Below are positions 2,427 to 57,078 of a stretch of 64,000 nt of DNA, one piece after another. The notes below the pieces were generated by a model, which searched no databases, was not told the origin of the DNA, and was given only the letters and a program-made list of their open reading frames with translations. The number at the start of each line of letters is the position of its first letter. The first letter of the stretch is position 1. The position numbers and the translations under genes were made by a program. The stretch is from Candidatus Levyibacteriota bacterium (GTDB lineage Bacteria; Patescibacteriota; Microgenomatia; Levybacterales; UBA12049). Where the stretch lies: positions 4,227-68,226 of the forward strand of contig JBBSGK010000004.1 of the NCBI GenBank assembly GCA_038254115.1, written 5' to 3'.

Positions 2427-5318
2427 TTATGGTGCAACTTCTCTTGAGATTGTTTCATCCCGCATCAGAAAAGTTGGGGCATTAAGTATAAAATCAAGTC
2501 TCGGACTGATTGTGAGAGATGGGGTATTTGAGTTAGCGCCGCAAAGACTGCGGTTATTTATTAGCTTTCCATTCCCACCATTACCGGCAGCATTCATGAT
2601 AATTGATCCTTCTACATTTAACATTTTATCAGGAGCCGGGCAATTGTTTTTTCCCTCAAGAACAAAATTCTTATCAGTACTGTAAAATCCTTGTAATTGG
2701 CCTGCGGGTTTGGGCAAAGAGTTGCTTGCGGCGCCTACCGATTTATCGATAACGATGTTCCCGCTTGATGAAAATAGAGCAGTCGAGCCGTTTGGAATTG
2801 TAATGTCGCCTTTAACCGTTAACTTTCCATTGATTAGGAATATATAATTTTGGGATACGGTTGTAGGATTAAAGCTTGTAATAGTTACATCGCTATTGGG
2901 CGGGGCAACATAAATTCCATGGGATAAGTTGCTTGGAAGAGCGCAGTTGGAAATGCCACCGCTGCAAACTGATGCAAGATCAATTGTGGTTAATTGTGCC
3001 CCGGATATCTTGTCGGTCAAACTCCCATAACTTGTATGCAAGCGGCCGGTAGATGAGAAGAATTCAGGATACGATGATCCTCCTACGACCCAATTTTTAC
3101 CGGATGACTGACCCGGGGAAAAATCCGGATTTCCATCTCCTGAAAAAATGACTCCAGGGGTTGATCCGATAGCGCTGTCACTCTCTGAGGCAGATGCGCC
3201 TGAGGGAACATTGTCCACAAATCCGCTATCAATCCGAAGGTCAAGATTATAGCCCTGTATCCAAGCAGTGGAGTTATTGAGGGCAAAATTGAGATTTATT
3301 ATATTTCCTGATGCATCACAACTGCCTCCGGTTGTTGGATTGGGAATAGGATTAACGCATCCCGAGCCGGCAGTTACAGAGAATGCTGCTGGTCCGTAAG
3401 GATATACATGGTAATTAGGCGGAACAGTATTGTACGTTATTGTGTAGGTCCCGGAAGGAACATTTGTAAAGGAATAACTGCCATCCGCGTTATTGGCTAC
3501 TGTTATTCCAGCGCTTGGAGAGATACTTATATTTGGTGGTGTTGCAGTATAGTTTAATTCGCCACGGTTACTCTGATTGTCTCCATTTGTATCAATAAAA
3601 ACCTTTCCGGAGATGCTGAAGAAAGCCGTATTTACAGTAGCTGTATTTACAGTAAATGACAGATTGTCGGTACTAGCATTGCAATTTGCGTCACCCGAAT
3701 AGTCTGCTGTAATTGTATGGGTTCCGGTAGTTAAGGATGAGGTAGAGATGTTTGCTGTTTGCGCGGCAAGAGCTACGGGATTACCCATTGATATGCCCCC
3801 GTCATTGAATTGAATTGTGCCTGTCGGAACACAGGCACCGCTTCCTGCAACTGAAGCTGAAAAAGTAACTGATGTTCCTGAATTAGATGGGCTTACCGGG
3901 GAAGAGGTAAGAGTGGTAGTGGTTGCTGCTAATGAACCTGTTGTAGGTGTTGCGGTTGGAGGAGTAGTTGGAACCGTGGTTGGGGTAGGTGTTGCGGTTG
4001 GAGGAGTAGTTGGAACCGTGGTTGGGGTAGGTGTTGGTGGTTGTATTTGTGGAACTGAGCAGCCTGCTCCTCCGCGTCCTCCGGCACCGCCTGTGTTACC
4101 TGAGGGCGGTTGGCCGGCTTGTCCTGCATGTAATCCGTTACAGCCAGAACCTCCAGCTCCTCCGACACGGCCAGGTCCAACTTTATCATTGTAAATATCG
4201 CCATAACCCCCGGCTCCATAACCGGCAATTGGTCCGGCGGGCGAGGCAGTCCCAGTGGCACCGGTGCCTCCTTGACCTCCATCTCCTCCCTTGCCTCCGT
4301 CGCCACCGGCTGTAGTTCCAAGTCCATTTCCGCCATTGCCACCTAACCCTCCTATACCTCCCTTACCATTGAAGCTCTCAGCAATACTAAACGCTCCGTA
4401 TCCTGCAATTGGACCTGTAAATTTTGCGTCTCCATGGGCATTGTTTCCTCCTCTTCCTCCGTTGCCTCCATTTCCACCATTTCCTCCAGATTGGATCCCG
4501 TTTGAGTCACCTCCATTGCCTCCATCGCCTCCAAAGCCCCCCTCTCCATTATATAAAATTCCAAAACTACCTGCCCCATATCCGACTCCTCCAGGGGATG
4601 AGGCAGTTCCGTGGGCTCCCGTGCCTCCTTGACCTCCATCTCCTCCCTTGCCGCCATTCCGTCCTAATTTTCCATTATTTCCATTCCCTCCCCATCCTCC
4701 GGCACCGTTATATACTTGAGCAAAACTTGAAGCACCATAACCGACAGGTGTTACGGATTTAGCATCGCCCGAAGCATTATCCCCACCACGTCCACCAACT
4801 CCTCCATCTCCACCTGCGCTAATTGCGGTTGCATTTCCTCCCTTGCCTCCATTTCCACCCTTACCGTTGTATACCTGAGTCGAGAAAGCTGAACTGCTAC
4901 TTTTGGCATTACCGGAAGCATAATTACCTCCAGTTCCTCCGCTTCCTCCTGGCCCGGCAACACCATTGCTTGTTATATTATCGCCTCCATTTCCGCCTTT
5001 TCCTCCGAGGCCGTTATATACAGTTGTGAGGGTTGTGGCATCACTTTTAGCATTGGCGACTCCGCCTCCTCCTCCGCCCCCACCGGCGCCGAGTGCTTGG
5101 TTGAGAGTTAATAATCCACTTCCACCATTTCCTCCATTTGCTGCCCCTCCTGCTCCCCCTCCTAAGCCTTGAGAATTATTGCAACCTTTTTGTCCTGGTG
5201 CGCCGGAAGCGCCACCTGTACCACAGCCAACTTGGGCAGATAAGGTGGGTACGAGTATAAGAAAAGTGAAGATAAACAGCGTGAGAATAGAGTTATTGAG
5301 GAATGGTTTTCTTGCCAT
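2427..5318 (-). CDS. glycine-rich repeat cell-surface protein (signal peptide, Gly-rich repeats, Pro/Thr linker, Ig-like/Cna-B-like domains, C-terminal domain)
   Basis: 963 aa. The signal peptide is MARKPFLNNSILTLFIFTFLILVPTLSAQ. It is followed by about 390 aa of roughly 40-aa repeats of the form YNGxGGxGGxGG...DAKS. Then comes a PTPTTVPTTPPTAT x2 linker, then beta-sandwich-like segments such as GKVFIDTNGDNQ...SGTYTITY. The gene lies between rplA and rplJ. Confidence 0.85.
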   Translation of the reverse strand: MARKPFLNNSILTLFIFTFLILVPTLSAQVGCGTGGASGAPGQKGCNNSQGLGGGAGGAANGGNGGSGLLTLNQALGAGGGGGGGGVANAKSDATTLTTVYNGLGGKGGNGGDNITSNGVAGPGGSGGTGGNYASGNAKSSSSAFSTQVYNGKGGNGGKGGNATAISAGGDGGVGGRGGDNASGDAKSVTPVGYGASSFAQVYNGAGGWGGNGNNGKLGRNGGKGGDGGQGGTGAHGTASSPGGVGYGAGSFGILYNGEGGFGGDGGNGGDSNGIQSGGNGGNGGNGGRGGNNAHGDAKFTGPIAGYGAFSIAESFNGKGGIGGLGGNGGNGLGTTAGGDGGKGGDGGQGGTGATGTASPAGPIAGYGAGGYGDIYNDKVGPGRVGGAGGSGCNGLHAGQAGQPPSGNTGGAGGRGGAGCSVPQIQPPTPTPTTVPTTPPTATPTPTTVPTTPPTATPTTGSLAATTTTLTSSPVSPSNSGTSVTFSASVAGSGACVPTGTIQFNDGGISMGNPVALAAQTANISTSSLTTGTHTITADYSGDANCNASTDNLSFTVNTATVNTAFFSISGKVFIDTNGDNQSNRGELNYTATPPNISISPSAGITVANNADGSYSFTNVPSGTYTITYNTVPPNYHVYPYGPAAFSVTAGSGCVNPIPNPTTGGSCDASGNIINLNFALNNSTAWIQGYNLDLRIDSGFVDNVPSGASASESDSAIGSTPGVIFSGDGNPDFSPGQSSGKNWVVGGSSYPEFFSSTGRLHTSYGSLTDKISGAQLTTIDLASVCSGGISNCALPSNLSHGIYVAPPNSDVTITSFNPTTVSQNYIFLINGKLTVKGDITIPNGSTALFSSSGNIVIDKSVGAASNSLPKPAGQLQGFYSTDKNFVLEGKNNCPAPDKMLNVEGSIIMNAAGNGGNGKLINNRSLCGANSNTPSLTISPRLDFILNAPTFLMRDETISREVAP
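3947..4040. repeat. 42-bp tandem repeat (2.3 copies) inside the Gly-rich protein gene, encoding the PT-rich linker
   Basis: GTGTTGCGGTTGGAGGAGTAGTTGGAACCGTGGTTGGGGTAG occurs at 3947-3988 and again at 3989-4030, followed by a partial third copy. Confidence 0.8.
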
Positions 5319-5992: not shown

Positions 5993-6041
5993 ATTAAATT
6001 TACCAATTGTTGCCGGAAATTGTCAAGCTGACCAATGTAGA

Positions 6042-6929
6042 TTATGCAGAAAAATTGAGTTTGATTCCGGGGGACATTGTGGATTTGAGCGTGATGTTTT
6101 TGATATTTTTTGCCTGCACTGCTTGGATAACTGCCTCGACATTGTCAACCAATTTTTTCTCTTCAAATGAAATCTTGCCGATTGATAAGTGCATGATTGG
6201 GGCTTTTGCTTCTGTCTTGAAATTGATTTGTCCGAGCTCAAATTTCTTTGCTGCCTCTTTTGGTTTGGGATGGATGGTGCCGTTTTTGGGATTTGGCATA
6301 AGGCCCCGTGGCCCGAGAACTCTTGCAACTTTTGCAAGATGGCTCATGGTATCAGGCGTTGCGATAAGGATATCAAAATCCACTTGCCCCCCGGTAATTG
6401 CTTTTACAAGTTCTTCAACGTGTTTGGGATCCGCAGCGTGATCCGCAATCTCGATTTTTGCCTTTTTTCCTGATCCATGGGGGAGTGTGAGATTTCCTGA
6501 AATTCCCCGCTCCTGCGTATTGATGTGTAGCTCAACTGTTTCATCAAGTTTGGTTCTTTTTGTAGAATTTAAAATCTTCAAAGCATCTGTCACAGAATAC
6601 TTTTTATTTTTATCTACCTGCTTGGCCATTGCCAGATAACTTTCTGAGTGAGGCCTTGCTTTTTTGGAGGCTTTGTATTTTGATGTCTTGACAGTTTTGG
6701 CCGCTTTTTTTTCAGTCTTTGTTTCCTCAGCTTTTAATTCGGACTGTTCTTCTTTCTCTTCATTTACTGATTCTTTTATTGCTGAGTTTTCAACCTGCGT
6801 TGCTTTTTCGGCTTCGCCTTGTTTTTTGGCAGCTTCTATCCTTTTGGCTTCAGCTTTTTGCTTAGCTTTTTTCTTCTGATCTTTTTCGTCTTCTTCAATT
6901 CCAATTGTTTTAACTCTTATTTTACCCAC
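6042..6929 (-). CDS. rplA: 50S ribosomal protein L1 with an N-terminal Lys/Glu-rich extension of about 85 aa
   Basis: The L1 core begins around MAKQVDKNKKYSVTDALKILN... I place the start at the GTG at 6927-6929, which sits 4 nt after a GGGAGG Shine-Dalgarno sequence. The ORF-track start at 6965 is a TTG inside a heptamer repeat and I discount it. The ATG at MAKQVDK remains a possible alternative start. Confidence 0.85.
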   Translation of the reverse strand: MGKIRVKTIGIEEDEKDQKKKAKQKAEAKRIEAAKKQGEAEKATQVENSAIKESVNEEKEEQSELKAEETKTEKKAAKTVKTSKYKASKKARPHSESYLAMAKQVDKNKKYSVTDALKILNSTKRTKLDETVELHINTQERGISGNLTLPHGSGKKAKIEIADHAADPKHVEELVKAITGGQVDFDILIATPDTMSHLAKVARVLGPRGLMPNPKNGTIHPKPKEAAKKFELGQINFKTEAKAPIMHLSIGKISFEEKKLVDNVEAVIQAVQAKNIKNITLKSTMSPGIKLNFSA

Positions 6930-6952
6930 GTTTCCTCCCTTCGGTCGGTCAA

Positions 6953-6983
6953 GTGCAAAGTGCAAAGTGCAAAGTGCAAAGTG
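6953..6983. repeat. heptanucleotide tandem repeat (GTGCAAA) x4 plus a partial copy, in the rplK-rplA intergenic region
   Basis: Directly visible as gtgcaaagtgcaaagtgcaaagtgcaaagtg. Confidence 0.9.
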
Positions 6984-7039
6984 AAGGAATTTTTGTTTTT
7001 AATTATTTTTATTAAATTTAAACTTTTCATTTTTAACTT

Positions 7040-7462
7040 TTAACTTACTTCAACCCCCATTGATCTTGCAGTTCCGGCTACAATTCTTGCTGCCATTTCT
7101 ACGTCATCTGTATTCAGGTCTTCCATTTTGTCCTTTGCGATTTGGCGGGCCTGATCCATGGTGAGTTTGCCTATTTTTTCCCGTCCAGGTTTTTGTGATC
7201 CTTTTTCCTGGCCCATTGCTTTTTTGATCAGCTCGGCAACAGGGGATTTTTTGGTGATGAAAGAGAAAGTCCTGTCTTCATAAACAGTAATCACAACAGG
7301 GATGACATTGCCTTTCTGATCAGCAGTCTTATCATTGTAGGCTTTGACAAACTCCATGATGTTAAGACCATGTGGCCCGAGAGCAGTTCCGACAGGCGGT
7401 GCTGGTGTTGCTCCTCCTGCAGGTAATGCGATTTTAATTAATGTTTTTATTTTCTTAGCCAT
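7040..7462 (-). CDS. rplK: 50S ribosomal protein L11
   Basis: 140 aa with the L11 signature [43 protein letters not shown]... Confidence 0.93.
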
Positions 7463-8408: not shown

Positions 8409-8603
8409 TTATCTTAATATCAATCCCATCAATTTTGTAAACGCCAAATCAAGAGCACCTATATATAGTCCGACAAGTACGCTGATTGTTATGACAACCA
8501 AAGTAAGTCTGATGACTTCATCTCTTGTCGGCCATATGACTTGTCTTAATTCGACATAAGTTTCTTGTAAAAATTTAACAGGAGTAGTCATTATATCAGA
8601 CAT
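8409..8603 (-). CDS. secE: preprotein translocase subunit SecE
   Basis: C-terminal ...KFLQETYVELRQVIWPTRDEVIRLTLVVITISVLVGLYIGALDLAFTKLMGLIL matches the SecE TM helix. I trimmed the start to the internal ATG (MSDIMTTPVKF...). The longer ORF to 8699 overlaps a plus-strand promoter. Confidence 0.8.
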   Translation of the reverse strand: MSDIMTTPVKFLQETYVELRQVIWPTRDEVIRLTLVVITISVLVGLYIGALDLAFTKLMGLILR

Positions 8604-17788: not shown

Positions 17789-19387
17789 TTATTCCCATCT
17801 CATCGTTGCGGGGGGTTTGGAAGTGATGTCATAAACAACTCTTGAAACATCAGGGACCTCATTTACAATTCTTGATGATATTTGCGCGAGCACATCATAG
17901 GGGATACGGCTCCAATCAGCCGTCATAACATCCTCAGAATCATACGAGCGCACAGCTAGGACTTCTGCATAAACACGGGCGTCTCCTTTGACCGCGGTTG
18001 AAAAGCTTCCTGTCATTACTGCAAAGCATTCAAATACTTTGCTGTATTGGTCTGCTTTTTTCATCTCTTCAACCACTATTTGATCTGCTTTCATGACTTG
18101 TGCAAGCCTTTTTTCTGTGACCTCACCCATTATATTTACCGCATGTCCGGGACCGGGCCAAGGCTGCTGCATTACTATTTCCTCAGGAAGTCCTGAGAGG
18201 CGCCCGATTTCGCGTACTTCATCTTTATAATAAGTCCGGTTGGGTTCGATAAGTTTTAATTTCAAACTCTGAGGAAGTCCTCCGACATTGTGATGGGATT
18301 TGATGTGGGATGCATGCTTAGACCCTTTGGATTCTATAACATCTGAGTAAATTGTTCCCTGCCCGAGGAACTCTGCATCCTTATGCTTTTCTGCAATTTC
18401 CTGGAAGATATCTATATAAAGACTTCCGATTATTTTTCTCTTTTGTTCCGGATCTGTTATTCCTTTTAGCTTGTTTAGGAAACGTGTACGTGCATCAACG
18501 ATCACCAAATTTGCATGTATCAAATCTTTAAAAATGTAACTGACAAGCTGATCTGTGCCGACTCTCATAAGACCTGATTCGACATAGACCGGGATAAGAT
18601 TTGGGCCGATTGCTTTTCCTATCAGAAAAGCTGCAACAGTTGAGTCGACACCTCCTGAAACAGCAGCGATGACTTTACTTGTCCCAACTGTCTTTTTAAT
18701 GTCCGCTATTATTTTTTGCGGATCAAGAGAGAGGGGAACAAGATCCTCTTTACAGATCTTTGCAAAGTTTCTCAAAATTTCCAAACCATAATCTGTGTGC
18801 TGCGCTTCAGGATGAAACTGCACGCCATATAGATTTTTATCTGTGTTTTGGACAGCTGAAAATTCAACTGTTTTGGTGACAGCGAGATTTTCAAAACCCG
18901 GGGGAAGTTTTGTTACAGTGTCGCCATGTGAAACAATAACACTTGAAGTTTGGGGAAATCCATTAAGGATGCTTAATTCTTGATTATTAAGTCTTAATTC
19001 TAACTTTTCAGGTCCGTATTCTTTGGTCGTCTCCTCCACCTTTGCGCCCAATACCTGAGCCATTAATTGCCAGCCGTAACAAATGCCAAGAATTGGTGTT
19101 CCTTGCTCAAAAATCTCTTTTGAAATTGTTGGCGCGCCTTTTTCATAAACAGATGAAGGTCCGCCGGAAAGGATAATTCCCTTGATAGTATCACGGGTAC
19201 CACGTGTAGCACGAGTACCACGAGCTTTTTTCGTTTCTTTCCCGTGATACCCGTGGTACTTTTGATACTCGTGATACTTTTGGAGTGTTTCCTCGGGGTT
19301 TACGTATTCTATTTGGACTCCTATTTGCCGGAGGCGTCTCCCTATGAGGTGAGCAGTTTGTGAGCCAAAGTCAACGATGAGGATCAT
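17789..19387 (-). CDS. guaA: GMP synthase (glutamine-hydrolysing) with an approximately 35-aa low-complexity insert in the amidotransferase domain
   Basis: N-terminal GATase (IVDFGSQ...ILSGGPSS...GICYGWQ), ATP-pyrophosphatase SGGVDS motif, and a C-terminal dimerisation domain. The extra segment YHEYQKYHGYHGKETKKARGTRATRGTRDTIKG is not in canonical GuaA. Confidence 0.93.
   Translation of the reverse strand: MILIVDFGSQTAHLIGRRLRQIGVQIEYVNPEETLQKYHEYQKYHGYHGKETKKARGTRATRGTRDTIKGIILSGGPSSVYEKGAPTISKEIFEQGTPILGICYGWQLMAQVLGAKVEETTKEYGPEKLELRLNNQELSILNGFPQTSSVIVSHGDTVTKLPPGFENLAVTKTVEFSAVQNTDKNLYGVQFHPEAQHTDYGLEILRNFAKICKEDLVPLSLDPQKIIADIKKTVGTSKVIAAVSGGVDSTVAAFLIGKAIGPNLIPVYVESGLMRVGTDQLVSYIFKDLIHANLVIVDARTRFLNKLKGITDPEQKRKIIGSLYIDIFQEIAEKHKDAEFLGQGTIYSDVIESKGSKHASHIKSHHNVGGLPQSLKLKLIEPNRTYYKDEVREIGRLSGLPEEIVMQQPWPGPGHAVNIMGEVTEKRLAQVMKADQIVVEEMKKADQYSKVFECFAVMTGSFSTAVKGDARVYAEVLAVRSYDSEDVMTADWSRIPYDVLAQISSRIVNEVPDVSRVVYDITSKPPATMRWE
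19186..19292. repeat. array of 7 octamer repeats GTAYCACG in both orientations (palindromic), in frame inside guaA
   Basis: Forward copies gtatcacg, ggtaccacg, tgtagcacg, agtaccacg, then inverted copies cgtgatac, ccgtggtac, tcgtgatac. It corresponds exactly to the extra 35 aa in GuaA. Confidence 0.6.
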
Positions 19388-19748
19388 TTGTAGTTATTAT
19401 ACAATTTTATCGCACGGATTGGTAGACTTGGGGCATATCGCTTTTTGAAAGAACCACCTGGAAAAGTAGAAGGGAATTAGATTTGAACGCTCCTGCAAAA
19501 ATTAAAAGATAGTATTTCCATATTCTGTAAAACTTCCCGTCGTATTTTTGAGGACATTTTTTGACTGTCTTTTCGGCCTGATCCATAAGTTAAGGGTATT
19601 ATACTGCTAATTGTGAGGATGGCAAGGGTAGAATTGCTTGAGTTAAATTAAAACTAATCTCATAGCAAACTATTTACTAACTCTCTAAATTTATTTCGAG
19701 GCTTGAAAAATAATAAACGATAGTATATAATTCCCTATAATAATTATT

Positions 19749-49441: not shown

Positions 49442-51745
49442 TTATTTTCCCCAGATCTTTAAACTATCTTGTACTTGTTTGTCCTGTAGGTCGATGTTTT
49501 TCAGAATATATTGATATGTATTTATTGCTTTTTGATTATCTCCCACTTCGTGGTAAAAAAGGCCCAGGGCAAAGTATGCATCGCGATAGTCAGGCTTGAG
49601 TTTTATGGTATGCTCCAGGATCTCAATTCCTTTTTTGGGGCCCATTGTTTGTCCTGCAAGTACTCCATAGTTGTAGGATATTTTGGCATCATTTGGCGCA
49701 AGCTCCCGGGCCTTTATGATGGAGCTTAGAGCTTTGCCATAATAATTTTTTTCATTGTCCTTCCCACTCTGCGCAAGTGTATAGAAAAGTCTTACGCGGT
49801 TTTTCCAGTAGACAATATTGTTGGGATGAGTATTTATGACATTGTCACTTATTGTGATTGCATCCCGCGATAACTGAGCTGCTCCTGATGCGTCTTTTTG
49901 AAGATATAAAGCAGATGCCAGGGTGCCCAGATTTATGGATAGTTCATCTTTATAAACAGGCTCATTTGGCTCTGCATTGACCGCGTTTTGGAGAGGGGTA
50001 ATTGCTTCCTGATAACTACCTACTTTATCCAGACTTGAACCATTTGCGTAATTCAGATCAGCGCTCCAGTAGCTAAAAAGGTTCTGAAGGAAGAGAGAAG
50101 AAGTAAGAAGTAAGGCTACTAGCAGAATCCATTGGATGATCGAGGTTTTAGATGGGACAGAAGGCTCATCGGAGACAGAGGGAAAGCTTAATACTTTTTG
50201 GGGATTGAGTATTCCGGATAGTATGAATATGAATGCAGGAATTAGGAAAAAGTAGAGATTGATTATTACAACCGAGAATCCGAAGAAGTTGGAAACCAAG
50301 ATTGAAACCCACCCCGCGAATAGAGCAGTAATCAGAATACTCGGAATACTCAGAGAACCAGTTGATCTGACCTTCAGATTTTCAGATGATCTGAGCGGAC
50401 TGTCATTCTGAGTTTTCAGAGTTTTCTGAAAAACTTGAAAAATAAATAATCCAATGATTGCTAGATAGCTTCCCAGACCAAATGCTCCCGTTGTCGCCAG
50501 ATAATTTAGGTATTCATTGTGGGCCTTGTTGTACAGATAATCCCATTCCGAAGTGACATTGTGTTCCACTGGCCGGTATCTGTAATAGGCAAAAGCAAAT
50601 GTCTCAACACCTGTCCCGATAATCGGATTTGCCTTCCATGCATCTATTGCCCCGCGCCAAACCAAAAGACGGATTTTGCCGGAATCAGTTCCTCCGAGTT
50701 CTCCGGCAGCTGGTAATTCGTGGGTTGAAGTTGGATTTGATGATTTTATTTTGTTCAATTCAGGCAAAGTGAATTTTGAAAGTTGTGAAATAGGAACGCC
50801 CGAAAAGAAATTGAAAACTATAAATATCAGATTGAATAGCAGAAAGTATTTTAGGAAATTTTCTTTGAGATATTTTTTGAAAAATAGTATTGCCCAGAAG
50901 ATAATATTTGCAATCCAAAAACCTATAAAACCGCCTCGTGTATCGGTGTAGGTGAGGCAGGCATAAAATAAAGAAGTAAGAAGTAGGAAGTAAGAAGCAA
51001 GGAAAAAATTTCCTGAACCATAATTCTTGATTCTTGATTCTTGATTCTCATGGGATGATTCTGATTTAGATTTTAGATTTCTTAGAAAGTAGGAAATTGA
51101 AAGAGGTATTAAAACTGACATGTATGCAGCAAGCCAAGCCGGCTGACCAAGAGTTGAGAAGATACGGATTGTGGGTTTGAATGCATCAGTCCAGCATGAT
51201 GTATCAAAACTTCCCCTGAAAATATAACAAGTAGGGTCCCAACCAAAATGGGATGGAAATCCCCAAAGAGCAACAATCAAGCCTGAAAATAAGCTAACTT
51301 TTAAGACTTTAAGTACGTGTTTGGTTTCCAGATTGGAGACAAAGGCGTAGTATAGAAATATATAAGAGATGATAGATAACAGGCCGCCGTTAAATCTTGA
51401 GTAATAACCCCAGAGCGAGACATGCGGATCAAGGGAAAAAATTGTTGAGATTATTTGAGAAGCGAGGAAAAGAATTAGCGGAATATCAAGAGGTGTACGT
51501 TGGATGAAGATTCTTTTTTGAAGAATCATTTTTGCTATCCAGGAAGCGCCGATTATGGTTGTTATTCCAAAAGTAAGCCACATTTTTGGAAATTCAAAAA
51601 GTTCTGAAGGGGATCCGCTAAAAACAATGGGGACTAGGAGGAAGAGGGCGTAGAAGGAGAATTCGATAATGCGGTTGCAAAAATTTATAATTTTCATTAG
51701 CGGGATGATGTACGGCAGATAAAACTTCATTTTCCATGGTATCAT
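49442..51745 (-). CDS. O-antigen-ligase-like polytopic membrane protein with C-terminal TPR repeats
   Basis: 767 aa, at least 12 TM helices with a Wzy_C-like core, then TPR-like repeats (...AINTYQYILKNID...). It contains in-frame heptamer-repeat inserts. Confidence 0.75.
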   Translation of the reverse strand: MIPWKMKFYLPYIIPLMKIINFCNRIIEFSFYALFLLVPIVFSGSPSELFEFPKMWLTFGITTIIGASWIAKMILQKRIFIQRTPLDIPLILFLASQIISTIFSLDPHVSLWGYYSRFNGGLLSIISYIFLYYAFVSNLETKHVLKVLKVSLFSGLIVALWGFPSHFGWDPTCYIFRGSFDTSCWTDAFKPTIRIFSTLGQPAWLAAYMSVLIPLSISYFLRNLKSKSESSHENQESRIKNYGSGNFFLASYFLLLTSLFYACLTYTDTRGGFIGFWIANIIFWAILFFKKYLKENFLKYFLLFNLIFIVFNFFSGVPISQLSKFTLPELNKIKSSNPTSTHELPAAGELGGTDSGKIRLLVWRGAIDAWKANPIIGTGVETFAFAYYRYRPVEHNVTSEWDYLYNKAHNEYLNYLATTGAFGLGSYLAIIGLFIFQVFQKTLKTQNDSPLRSSENLKVRSTGSLSIPSILITALFAGWVSILVSNFFGFSVVIINLYFFLIPAFIFILSGILNPQKVLSFPSVSDEPSVPSKTSIIQWILLVALLLTSSLFLQNLFSYWSADLNYANGSSLDKVGSYQEAITPLQNAVNAEPNEPVYKDELSINLGTLASALYLQKDASGAAQLSRDAITISDNVINTHPNNIVYWKNRVRLFYTLAQSGKDNEKNYYGKALSSIIKARELAPNDAKISYNYGVLAGQTMGPKKGIEILEHTIKLKPDYRDAYFALGLFYHEVGDNQKAINTYQYILKNIDLQDKQVQDSLKIWGK
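50971..51049. repeat. roughly 80-bp imperfect palindromic repeat element: (GAAGTAA)n, spacer, (TTCTTGA)n, in frame in the ligase-like gene
   Basis: aagaagtaagaagtaggaagtaagaagcaagg...aaaaaatttcc...ttcttgattcttgattcttgattctc. A second copy is at 55201-55267, and a half-copy (gaagaagtaagaagtaagg) at 50096-50114. Confidence 0.6.
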
Positions 51746-51746
51746 A

Positions 51747-52901
51747 TTGGAAAAACGTGGGCAAGCTGATAGAATAGGTTTAATTATGAATCTCTTGAAT
51801 AGTTTCTACGGTCTTTTTTCTCACGATATCGGTATAGATCTCGGCACTGCAAATACTCTTGTTTTTGTCCGGGATAAAGGGATTGTGATCCGTGAACCGT
51901 CAGTTGTCGCGAGGCAAAAAAAGAGCAAACAAATCATCGCGATTGGAAGTGAGGCCAAGAAAATGCTTGGCAAGACACCTGCTTCTATAGTTACGGTACG
52001 TCCGCTTCATGGGGGAACGATTGCGGATTTTGACGCGACTGTTTCGATGATCGCTTACTACATCAAGCAAGTCCATGAGATGGGGGGAAAATTGACCGGG
52101 ATTTTTGCCCGTCCCAAAGTGGTGATTGGGATTCCATCTGCAGTAACCGAGGTTCAAAGACGTGCTGTCTGGGAAGCAGCTCTCTCAGCAGGAGCCCGGG
52201 AAGCGTATCTTATTGAAGAGCCGATGGCCGCGGCAATTGGTGAGAATATATCAATTTTTCAGTCAAAGGGCATAATGGTAGTCGATATAGGCGGCGGGAC
52301 TACAGAAATCGCGGTTATCTCGCTTGGTGGAATAGTAGTCGGCCGGTCAATGAAACTCGCCGGAGACGAGATGGATCAGGCGATCCTGCATTATGTGCGG
52401 CTTCGCCATGGAATGCTTCTTGGGGAGAGTACAGCTGAGGATATAAAAATAAAAATAGGAAGCGCTGCCCAGAAAAGCGCAAAAGCGCAAAAGCGAAGAA
52501 GCGAAGAAGGGGAAGAAGAGAAGGAAGAGATTAGCCGTACGGCGAAGGTTATGATTGTGAGGGGACGGGATATTGAGACTGGTCTTCCAAAAAGCCAGAA
52601 GATAACTGAGCCTGAAATACGTGAGGCATTATCTCCGATAATCAATCAAATAATTCAAGCCGTTGCCGATGTTTTGGAGGAAACGCCGCCTGAGCTATTG
52701 CCTGATATTCTCGAGCAGGGAATTCTTCTCACAGGTGGGGGCGCCAATTTGGAAGGCTTTGATCAGTTGATGGTTGAACGGGTGCATCTGCCTGTTTTTG
52801 TTTCATCTGATCCGATGACCTCTGTTGTCCGCGGAACGGGAAAAGTTGTGCAGGATGAAAAACTCCTCGAGCGGGTGAAGGTAATTGGGGGATTGAGGTA
52901 G
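51747..52901 (+). CDS. mreB: rod-shape-determining protein MreB (with an approximately 35-aa charged insert)
   Basis: Actin-fold motifs DLGTANT, VIGIPSAVTEVQRRA and DIGGGTTE. The insert QKSAKAQKRRSEEGEEEKEE is encoded by the heptamer repeat (AAAGCGC)n(GAAGCGA)n at 52474-52512. Confidence 0.93.
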   Translation: MEKRGQADRIGLIMNLLNSFYGLFSHDIGIDLGTANTLVFVRDKGIVIREPSVVARQKKSKQIIAIGSEAKKMLGKTPASIVTVRPLHGGTIADFDATVSMIAYYIKQVHEMGGKLTGIFARPKVVIGIPSAVTEVQRRAVWEAALSAGAREAYLIEEPMAAAIGENISIFQSKGIMVVDIGGGTTEIAVISLGGIVVGRSMKLAGDEMDQAILHYVRLRHGMLLGESTAEDIKIKIGSAAQKSAKAQKRRSEEGEEEKEEISRTAKVMIVRGRDIETGLPKSQKITEPEIREALSPIINQIIQAVADVLEETPPELLPDILEQGILLTGGGANLEGFDQLMVERVHLPVFVSSDPMTSVVRGTGKVVQDEKLLERVKVIGGLR

Positions 52902-55284: not shown

Positions 55285-57078
55285 ATGAAAACAGGATACG
55301 CCTTTGGTGAGCATATAAAAACAGAGAAGATCAAAAAAAGAAGATATTCGTCAGGTCCGTCGGATTTTAACTCGCGCGAATTTTTTCTTCCCCTTGCACT
55401 TTTTGGAGCAGCCGTTCTTCTGATATCCAAACTATTTTATCTGCAAGTGGTTAAGGGTTCTGATTTCCGGGCGCTTTCTGATTCCAACCGAATAAGGACT
55501 CAAATTATTCATGCTCCGCGGGGTGCTATATTTGACCGGAACGGTGTCCCGCTTGTAATAAATAATCCGGGATTCAGGCAGGTAAATAAAGACAAATCAA
55601 CAATCTTGACTCGGGATCAGGCGCTGCCTCTTATTGCAAAAGGGGATAAAAATCTCGAGGTAGACTCTCTCAGGAATTATGTCTTAAAAGACAGTCTGAG
55701 CCATGTTATCGGATACATCGGCCAGGTCTCCAAGCCCGAGCTCGATTCAGGGGAGTTTAATGATTACCGTGGTACTGATTGGATAGGTAAAAGCGGAATT
55801 GAGAGGCAATATGAACACATATTGAGGGGCACAGACGGTAAGCAACTGGTTGAAGTCAATGCAATGGGTAATAAAGTGCGTCCACTTGGCACGACCGATC
55901 CAATTTCAGGGCAGGATATCACACTGACGATTGATTCGAAGCTTCAGCAAGTTGTATTTGACGCGACAAAAGATGTAAAAAAGGGCGCTGTTATCGTCTC
56001 CAGCCCGACAGGTGAAATTCTGGCAATGGTTTCGCGTCCTTCTTATGACCCCAATCTTTTTACCCTGGATAAAACTTATAAAGTTGCAACGGATGCAGCG
56101 CATCAAAATGTAAGTGAGATACTTCTGGATTCACAAAATCAGCCGCTTTTGAACAGGGCAATTGCAGGTACATATCCTCCCGGCTCAACATACAAAATAG
56201 TGACAGCCGCCGCCGGACTTAATGAAAATATTATTGATGAGAATTACAAGATACGCGACAGCGGTGTAATAAAAGTCGGGGAGTTTTCTTTTGCGAATTG
56301 GTACTATACGGGTTATGGCAGGACAGAGCCGGGTGAGCTAAATGTAGTCCGTGCACTGGCTCGGTCCAATGACATTTTTTTCTACAAACTTGCTGAAAAA
56401 GTAAGTCCTGACAAGCTATCTGAAATGGCAGTAAAATTTGGTTTGGGAAATAAATCGGGCATTGACTTGGGAGGAGAAGCAAAAGGTTTGGTTCCTACTG
56501 AAAAATGGAAAAAAACTGTAATTGGGGAGGGATGGTACTTGGGAGACACTTATCATTATGGAATAGGACAGGGATTTTTATTGACAACACCTCTTCAAGT
56601 TAATGAATGGACAGAGGTAGTTGCAAATGGCGGGAGTCTGTACGAGCCACATTTGCTGAAAGCTCAAAGTGAAAAGCGCAAAAGCGCAAATATTTTGAAT
56701 GATAAGACGATTTCTTTGATCAGGCAGGGAATGATTGAAAGCTGCTCAACGGGAGGTGTTGCGTGGCCATTATTCAAGTTTAAAGTTCAAAATCCAAAGT
56801 TAAAAGTTGATGGCAAAAATATTTTGGAAGTAAAAGAAGCCAGTGAATCAGCAAAATCTGAAAGCTTGAGAGAGATTGCGGTGGCGTGCAAGACTGGAAC
56901 CGCCCAGCATGGAGGGGAGACGACCCTGCCTCATGCATGGATTACCCTCTTTGCTCCTGCATACAATCCCCAAGTTGTAGTAACTGTTTTGAATGAGGAG
57001 AGTGGGGAAGGCTCAAATGAGGCAGCCCCAATAGCTAAAAAGATATTGGAAGCCTATTTTACAGAAACACCTCAATAA
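55285..57078 (+). CDS. mrdA: penicillin-binding protein 2 (peptidoglycan D,D-transpeptidase)
   Basis: N-terminal anchor, dimerisation domain, and transpeptidase motifs SxxK (PGSTYKIV), SxN (ARSNDIFFY) and KTG (ACKTGTAQ). It contains (AAAGCGC)x2 at 56672-56689. Confidence 0.9.
   Translation: MKTGYAFGEHIKTEKIKKRRYSSGPSDFNSREFFLPLALFGAAVLLISKLFYLQVVKGSDFRALSDSNRIRTQIIHAPRGAIFDRNGVPLVINNPGFRQVNKDKSTILTRDQALPLIAKGDKNLEVDSLRNYVLKDSLSHVIGYIGQVSKPELDSGEFNDYRGTDWIGKSGIERQYEHILRGTDGKQLVEVNAMGNKVRPLGTTDPISGQDITLTIDSKLQQVVFDATKDVKKGAVIVSSPTGEILAMVSRPSYDPNLFTLDKTYKVATDAAHQNVSEILLDSQNQPLLNRAIAGTYPPGSTYKIVTAAAGLNENIIDENYKIRDSGVIKVGEFSFANWYYTGYGRTEPGELNVVRALARSNDIFFYKLAEKVSPDKLSEMAVKFGLGNKSGIDLGGEAKGLVPTEKWKKTVIGEGWYLGDTYHYGIGQGFLLTTPLQVNEWTEVVANGGSLYEPHLLKAQSEKRKSANILNDKTISLIRQGMIESCSTGGVAWPLFKFKVQNPKLKVDGKNILEVKEASESAKSESLREIAVACKTGTAQHGGETTLPHAWITLFAPAYNPQVVVTVLNEESGEGSNEAAPIAKKILEAYFTETPQ

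Follow-up and report, generated by a model that had tools for sequence, protein, structure and literature searches.

The guaA gene of a Candidatus Levyibacteriota bacterium, which encodes the glutamine-hydrolysing GMP synthase, contains an in-frame palindromic DNA element whose two arms are tandem arrays of a 9-nucleotide (nt) unit. [quoted passage not shown] The stretch analysed, here called the window, is 64,000 nt long (contig JBBSGK010000004.1, positions 4,227 to 68,226) and has a GC content of 0.405; all positions are those of the window unless another locus is named. The analysis covered these 64 kb of the source genome and flanks of at most 22 kb in relatives, and the DNA of 12 insert-bearing guaA homologues was compared with that of one homologue whose site is empty (L213). 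The host gene occupies 17789-19387 on the minus strand and forms an open reading frame (ORF) of 532 amino acids. Its product matched GMP synthase structures in the PDB at about 1e-126 and the Pfam families GATase, GMP_synt_C, and NAD_synthase. An earlier note on this DNA had described an in-frame palindromic octamer array in the glutamine-amidotransferase domain of GuaA, and the inverted repeat at 19187-19278 within a continuous 532-residue ORF bears this out. Its interpretation was essentially right but too narrow, as the family is wider than a single landing in guaA.

The inverted repeat is composed of two 36-nt arms that are 78% complementary and are separated by a 20-nt loop. In both arms, four 9-nt units with the consensus GTAYCACRR follow one another in tandem. 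The inserted coding segment that constitutes the element spans 19187-19279 (minus strand), encodes residues 37-67 of GuaA (KYHEYQKYHGYHGKETKKARGTRATRGTRDT), and is missing from relatives of 505-508 residues. In the mRNA sense, the 5' arm (19243-19278, minus strand) consists of the units GTATCACGA, GTATCAAAA, GTACCACGG, and GTATCACGG, which encode YHE YQK YHG YHG. It is followed by the loop (19223-19242, minus strand; GGAAAGAAACGAAAAAAGCT), which is A-rich on the mRNA strand and contains an AGCT junction motif at 19223-19226. The 3' arm (19187-19222, minus strand) consists of CGTGGTACT, CGTGCTACA, CGTGGTACC, and CGTGATACT, encoding RGT RAT RGT RDT. Read on the plus strand, the first arm is GTATCACGG GTACCACGT GTAGCACGA GTACCACG and the second is CGTGATACC CGTGGTACT TTTGATACT CGTGATACT. 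Over the 36 nt of the arms there are 28 Watson-Crick pairs, 3 G.U, 2 A.C, and 3 other combinations.

The octamer GTAYCACG occurs nine times in the window against 0.86 occurrences expected, a count reached by none of 100 shuffles. Six of the nine fall within 19188-19277, three in forward and three in reverse orientation. The fourth forward unit (GTAGCACG) has a G at the Y position, and the fourth reverse unit (GTATCAAA) is degenerate. The seven octamers claimed initially, four forward and three inverted, therefore correspond to a real array, but one of six exact and two near units with a period of 9 rather than 8 nt. A two-unit pattern, allowing up to 3 mismatches, is essentially restricted to the guaA block within the 64 kb. 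At the termini, AAG(R)GTAYC...GRTAC(Y)CTT, each end is the inverted complement of the other, and terminal inverted repeats are thus present. The design of a full element, about 100 nt long, can be summarized as (A)AAG, four GTAYCACRR units, GGG, a variable loop, AGCTC, four inverted units, and CTT.

For the sense strand of the element as RNA, the predicted structure is one long hairpin with a free energy of -48.4 kcal/mol; compared with dinucleotide shuffles, z is -8.4. Folded as RNA, the opposite strand gives -38 kcal/mol with a z of -4.5, and folded as DNA it gives -21 kcal/mol with a z of -5.9. When the whole window was folded in sliding 120-nt segments with correction for GC content, the guaA element was the strongest outlier (z = -5.0). 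An Rfam scan of the window gave only four tRNAs at gathering score and no family covering the guaA hairpin; a riboswitch reading of the element was likewise negative. The element contains no promoter- or terminator-like signal beyond chance. Upstream of the gene, a near-consensus sigma-70-like promoter (TTGCCA, 16 nt, TATAAT) lies at 19598-19625 on the minus strand, about 210 nt 5' of the guaA start. This distance would imply a long leader, which has no Rfam match.

The position of the insert in the protein was assessed with an AlphaFold2 model built from 71 homologues (mean predicted local distance difference test (pLDDT) score 83; predicted template modelling score 0.79). The model places a helix at residues 31-46, a stretch with pLDDT below 50 at residues 47-64, and a strand at residues 70-73 (GIIL of GIILSGGP). 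According to the model, the insert is a surface loop running from the first helix to the second strand of the amidotransferase domain, with a central part that is modelled as disordered. This agrees with the loop location that had been proposed from the sequence. The catalytic residues C103, H192, and E194 are invariant in the 71-sequence alignment. The segment had been put at about 35 extra residues; the element in fact encodes 31, and with 34 residues at the site against 9 in relatives of 505-508 residues the net gain is about 25. Pfam recognized no domain within the insert, only GATase spanning the site. An intein or a known domain was rejected on the same grounds, since 31 residues fall far below the 130 or so needed for an intein and there are no Pfam or peptide matches. 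A phmmer search of the insert peptide against 1.84 billion representative proteins returned 0 matches, and a word-index search with a 63-residue concatenation of the window and P0004 inserts returned 2 candidates, none of them scored; low complexity defeats both kinds of search.

To judge from its open frame, the element is evidently translated together with the gene. Moreover, all the guaA inserts examined are in frame and free of stop codons. Mismatches between their arms are skewed toward A.C on the sense strand (38, against 13 G.U). Repairing an A.C mismatch by a C to T change in the 3' arm would mostly convert Ser to Phe or Leu, with a mean hydropathy change of +2.5. Together, the bias and the cost of repair suggest a peptide-level filter for hydrophilic loops. 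An antisense RNA was also considered, prompted by antisense folds that usually beat the sense folds (in L090, -41.6 against -19.8 kcal/mol). It was set aside for two reasons: avoidance of Phe and Leu explains the A.C bias, and in the window copy it is the sense strand that gives the better fold.

It could be asked whether the peptide itself is what selection has kept, so that a basic, Tyr/His-rich and Arg-Gly-Thr-rich loop would benefit GuaA, for instance as an oligomerisation or partner-binding tail. The frame is always kept, the mismatch pattern indicates selection for hydrophilic residues, and in the model the first ten residues of the insert prolong helix 31-46. However, close relatives carry unrelated peptides at the site (KYHGYH..RGTRDT, KGKGESVK..PFTLHP, SEIRNPK..DIRASN), different proteins contain this DNA in three different reading frames, residues 47-64 are poorly modelled, and the peptide has no relatives in protein searches. 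An adaptation at the protein level is accordingly very improbable.

The closest GuaA proteins (66-77% identity) belong to Patescibacteria/Microgenomates, chiefly Candidatus Levyibacteriota. Most of the close relatives have 504-508 residues, with about 9 at the site (consensus ..EIKKLKPK before GIILSGGP). Among the 120 closest homologues, 22 have 18-39 residues at exactly the same position, and five more have gained one to three. In 80 species-representative genomes, a large guaA insert was found in only one (L001). In L213 the empty site reads GAGATAAAAAGA|CTAAAGCCAAAGGGT, which places the insertion point between IK(K/R) and LKPKG; the ortholog alignment showed the same fixed boundaries. Nearly all guaA inserts are hairpins with short tandem units in inverted arms and a loop that is A-rich on the sense strand. 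The orthologs' inserts at the shared site are thus repetitive and palindromic as well, rather than a conserved segment of ordinary coding DNA.

At least five DNA types of guaA insert can be distinguished, most of them hairpins made from 7- or 9-nt units. The GTAYCACGG unit is found in the window, L081, and L082. L001 has GTATCAAAG, whereas L092 and L085-L087 have GAGACAAAG facing CTGTCTC. L088 carries AATCCGAAAT and ATTTCGAATT, which appear in degenerate form in L083. The 7-nt units AGGGTGA and AAGTGAA/CTCTCAC belong to L089 and L090, respectively. Insert type is discordant with GuaA identity calculated after removal of the insert: the three hosts of the GTAYCACGG type are only 76-78% identical in protein. 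Conversely, L083 and L089 (P0002 and P0015) have core proteins that are 91% identical and gene DNA that is 97% identical over the initial 100 nt and 89% identical over the final 1200 nt; despite the near-identical gene start, their inserts are unrelated. Inserts are also present in one member and absent from the other in pairs at 85-89% protein identity (P0005/P0006, P0025/P0055, P0065/P0030, and P0042/P0075). In the comparison of the window with L081, guaA is saturated at four-fold degenerate sites, with only 39% identity, while the inserts share 85 of 102 aligned bases. From this it follows that the insert is much younger than the divergence of the genes or that its nucleotide sequence is constrained. 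The earlier idea of an element that had landed in guaA therefore holds as regards a small palindromic DNA element, but not as regards a single event, since the site is a recurrent hot spot occupied by several types. In L001 an additional inverted repeat was noticed directly after the guaA stop codon (4642-4767), with short AT-rich units (AATTTTCAATT.. against ..AATTGAAAATT) and 34-nt arms that are 79% complementary.

A constrained sequence would be expected of a functional cis-element, either a hairpin in the RNA, some 110 nt from the start of the guaA coding sequence, that modulates translation or serves as a cleavage site for RNase III, or an array of 9-bp protein-binding sites, kept by selection. 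Ribbon-helix-helix proteins bind tandem 7-9-bp repeats in operator-like or centromere-like arrays. The unit sequence is conserved against saturated synonymous sites, hairpin potential is kept across types that differ in sequence, the element is the most stable structure in the window, and half elements occur in promoter-proximal intergenic DNA, including the dnaN-dnaA spacer beside a DnaA box (see below). Against this, 98 of the 120 close relatives have no large insert and some near-identical backgrounds differ by its presence, which shows that guaA does not need it. Furthermore, several mRNA-strand hairpins have decayed (-3 kcal/mol in L083, -8 in L085, and -9.5 in L088), and the element has neither an Rfam family nor promoter- or terminator-like signals beyond chance. 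Such a role for the insert is unlikely. Resemblances of the unit to parS, the DnaA box, and omega heptads were also set aside, as the other insert types lack the motif.

The search for copies beyond guaA used GTANCACNNGTANCACNNGTANCACNNGTA, which represents four consecutive units, as the query of a metagenome scan. At least 120 loci were matched, mostly collagen-like or PVA triplet repeats. Among the matches listed, eight contigs with GC contents of 0.37-0.41 contained the same heterogeneous arrays outside guaA. GTAYCACG arrays thus do exist elsewhere, as the earlier note had suggested looking for, but in related metagenome contigs rather than at a further place in the 64-kb window. In L166, a gene for a GT2 glycosyltransferase contains two in-frame hairpins, 200 nt apart, that are read as KGITGITSTTGTTG...GTFDTLGTRDT. 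Homologues of this glycosyltransferase are named Curtissbacteria, Levybacteria, Woesebacteria, and Microgenomates, which assigns L166 to the Microgenomates, and an alignment of the GT2 homologues showed, as at the guaA site, differing low-complexity inserts or none at the two loop sites among close relatives. In L115, a single arm, or half element, lies in frame in cysS and is read as GVSRVPRVSQVPQ, in the third frame. The first G of the unit accordingly falls at codon position 3 in guaA, 2 in the L166 GT2 gene, and 1 in the L115 cysS gene. L081, which has an element in guaA, contains a second four-unit array at 6030-6070, 3.8 kb from that gene.

Single arms were also found in intergenic DNA (L126, L157, L193, L110, and L175). 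Those of L126, L157, and L193 have a common unit order and common ends, AAAAGTAYCACGA GTACCACGG GTAYCACAA GTAYCACGG GTAA. In L193 the half element (3099-3134) lies between the divergent dnaN and dnaA genes, about 40 nt from a DnaA-box-like TGTGGATAA; this spacer is the probable origin region. In L110 a six-unit half element (3843-3888) is located about 60 nt past a tyrosine recombinase (Phage_integrase) gene and is followed by the AGCTC junction. A separate run of ACGCTGATT-like repeats precedes it. In L175, inverted GTAYCACRR arrays (1896-1940 and 2333-2386) lie on either side of a 23S_rRNA_IVP gene, which encodes a four-helix bundle, and the array pair together with this gene could be a longer relative of the hairpin element. 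The unit adjoins a gene for a TrwB/HerA-like ATPase. A scan of viral contigs yielded only perfect simple repeats in unrelated viruses and gave no indication of carriage by phages, and when the loci were searched with 11-mers from their own inserts, matches remained at background level.

When four guaA elements and both GT2 elements were aligned (alignment A2), they were in register throughout, with four units, GGG, the loop, the AGCTC junction common to both genes, four units, and CTT. Identity of the window copy is 76% with either of the GT2 copies and 77% with the guaA copy of L081, and similarity therefore tracks the element family and not the host gene.

These comparisons also bear on a local origin of the insert without mobility, in which a short unit was multiplied in place by slippage, and template switching or fold-back at AGCT copied one arm from the other. 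Similar inserts in other lineages would in that case have arisen in parallel or through homologous recombination between alleles of guaA. Slippage of register is possible in the tandem arrays that form the arms, and other short-unit arrays in the window have unit lengths that are not multiples of 3 and occur in both coding and non-coding DNA. The two arms change in concert between types (GTATCAAAG/CTTTGATAC, GAGACAAAG/CTGTCTC, and GTATCACGG/CCGTGATAC), there is no target-site duplication, and half elements end at AGCT. However, unrelated genes, other reading frames, and intergenic DNA show the same order of the four units, the same termini, and the same AGCTC junction. The window copy is also no nearer to a guaA copy than to the GT2 copies, and the same 100-nt design is not expected from independent slippage. 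A purely local origin is therefore judged to be unlikely. A plain coding microsatellite was rejected, as slippage alone explains neither the inverted second arm nor the homologous full elements at other loci.

Another rival explanation is an artefact of assembly or amplification, such as an inverted chimera, since palindromes can come from chimeras formed during multiple-displacement amplification. Homologous in-frame elements are present at the identical site in independent NCBI, ENA, Logan, and JGI assemblies, and the arms are imperfect, with mismatches that are compatible with coding. An artefact can hence be regarded as scarcely credible.

The palindromic form, the occurrence in three frames and in non-coding DNA, the family-wide design, and the discordance with the gene tree together argue for a dispersed repeat family at the nucleic-acid level. 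Under this interpretation, the full element occupies an in-frame position between the codons for IKK and those for LKPKG and would be transcribed and translated with guaA. Its product would be a hydrophilic 31-residue stretch on the surface of the amidotransferase domain that leaves the catalytic residues untouched. Such an element would survive where insertion keeps the frame, avoids stops, and falls in a permissive loop. The guaA loop would be such a permissive place, repeatedly filled, emptied, or refilled by several element types in the lineage. The copies would be mobile, and might have spread by transposition, by recombination among copies, or by fold-back and template switching at the AGCT junction, while the guaA copy would have no function of its own.

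Several observations weigh against this interpretation. The 64-kb window contains no further copy; in nine of ten related loci, none was found up to a distance of about 10 kb from guaA, and the copy number per genome may be low. When the flanks of filled sites (L082 and L088) were compared with those of the empty site (L213), there was no target-site duplication in guaA, nor was there one at the GT2 sites. No gene for a transposase, a tyrosine recombinase, or a 23S_rRNA_IVP protein that is related to the genes beside the arrays elsewhere is present in the window. The lineage of L110, L115, L126, L157, L175, and L193 is only putatively that of the other hosts, to judge from a GC content of 0.37-0.41 and the shared element. 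Conservation of the unit against a saturated background fits functional selection as well as it fits recent spread. Lastly, the very stable mRNA hairpin (-48 kcal/mol) could have regulatory consequences that a purely neutral view ignores.

The RPEs are among the closest known systems. They are palindromic repeats of about 100-150 bp that form several families dispersed in a small genome, and many of them lie within housekeeping genes without disturbing the frame. Translation then yields additional peptides where the protein fold allows them, and no transposase is known for these elements (Ogata et al. 2000 and 2002, as summarised in PMC10969869). The guaA element shares with them a stable palindromic hairpin, an in-frame position at the protein surface in an intact ORF, and homologous genic and intergenic copies at unrelated loci. 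However, its host belongs to a different phylum (Patescibacteria/Microgenomates), and the likeness is one of general form. The guaA-type arms moreover consist of four tandem 9-nt (or 7-nt) units, half elements exist, and one guaA loop site carries alternative element types in close relatives. Given the different phylum, the guaA element is unlikely to be a member of the RPE families proper of Rickettsia. Bacterial MITEs (ERIC, BOX, Correia, Nezha, and others) are small, non-autonomous elements with inverted ends that form hairpins and are intergenic or sometimes fused in frame to genes (PMC10969869). The guaA element resembles them in its terminal inverted repeats and hairpin folding, but no target-site duplication was found, nor, within the window, a related autonomous insertion sequence, and it is an inverted repeat over its whole length whereas the terminal repeats of MITEs surround a core.

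Long inverted repeats within functional coding genes are also found in the mitochondria of Nematomorpha, where both arms encode conserved protein (PMC6649704). There, as in guaA, translation and a strong hairpin coexist; in guaA, by contrast, the arms encode an extra, non-conserved loop. PARCEL repeats are similar in being coding repeats with dyad symmetry that are horizontally distributed and shuffled within genomes, but they are tandem 25-residue amphipathic domains of surface proteins and not single hairpins in enzymes. Finally, the L175 arrays are similar to 23S rRNA intervening sequences with a 23S_rRNA_IVP ORF in that both have a long stem with an ORF in the loop; the L175 unit lies outside rRNA, and the comparison serves only as a lead.

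In-frame palindromes that encode protein are known almost only from Rickettsia, and the same solution in candidate phyla radiation bacteria would mark it as a recurrent outcome in small genomes. What stands out here is the combination of tandem-unit arms, half elements, and a polymorphic hot spot at which several families compete for one loop. Such elements would explain part of the odd length variation and of the low-complexity loops in proteins of candidate phyla radiation bacteria. As the guaA site is polymorphic between near-identical alleles, it offers a marker for strain-level population genetics, and the inserts are natural tests of how far an essential enzyme and its mRNA tolerate a hairpin and an extra peptide. 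They are also a warning for annotation, since inserts of this kind are DNA elements and not lineage-specific protein domains.

A more far-reaching proposal is that Microgenomates carry an active system of array-armed palindromic cassettes at fixed loop-coding positions (in GuaA, GT2, and probably Wzy-like and other proteins), which are swapped or regenerated between close relatives faster than synonymous divergence accumulates. This is a tentative idea that we consider doubtful. If true, it would imply a dedicated mechanism, such as recombination that is directed by the hairpins and connected with the genes for 23S_rRNA_IVP or a tyrosine recombinase adjacent to arrays, and the cassettes might act as RNA-level regulators or as hypervariable surface loops.

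Other short-unit arrays were found in the window, and the guaA element is the clearest case of a general habit of the lineage to carry such arrays in frame. A second in-frame hairpin of 9-nt units is located at 50332-50429, in a minus-strand gene (49442-51745) whose product is O-antigen-ligase-like (Wzy_C) with TPR repeats. Units of TCWGAAAAC face units of GTATTCYGA, and the segment encodes approximately FQKTLKTQNDSPLRSSENLKVRSTGSLSIPSIL. With an RNA fold of -34 to -38 kcal/mol (z of about -4 for either strand), it ranks among the strongest outliers found when the window was folded in sliding segments. The same gene contains at 50971-51048 a run of (AAGAAGT)n facing (ATTCTTG)n, 7-nt units that are complementary at 5 of 7 positions each; the array is in frame (..KSKSESSHENQESRIKNYGSG..) and forms a weak hairpin of -15.6 kcal/mol. 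An inverted repeat at 50206-50352 was judged to be a chance match, as it spans a transmembrane segment and its arms are 99 nt apart.

Two different essential genes contain in-frame repeats of the 8-nt unit AAAAGCGC, namely mreB (51747-52901; array at 52473-52523) and the PBP2 transpeptidase gene (55285-57078; array at 56672-56690). MreB has about 20-25 extra residues (AAQKSAKAQKRRSEEGEEEKEE), and the PBP2 gene also contains an (AAGTTCA)n array at 56776-56808.

Outside these genes, the interval 6951-7046 between the minus-strand ORFs 6042-6965 and 7040-7462 holds a perfect (AAGTGCA)x4.7 array, followed 30 nt on by (TTAACTT)x5. AAGTGCA is similar to the 7-nt units in the guaA inserts of L089 and L090. 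The ORF at 2427-5318 (minus strand, 963 amino acids) has a perfect 42-nt tandem repeat (2.2 copies) and many repeats with a 9-nt period, at 3943-4036 and 4265-4814, and its product may be a surface protein rich in Gly or Pro. Second in strength among the predicted RNA structures of the window is one at 8441-8560 (minus strand; -43 kcal/mol, z = -4.4); it is not composed of tandem units and lies within a small coding frame that resembles a membrane protein.

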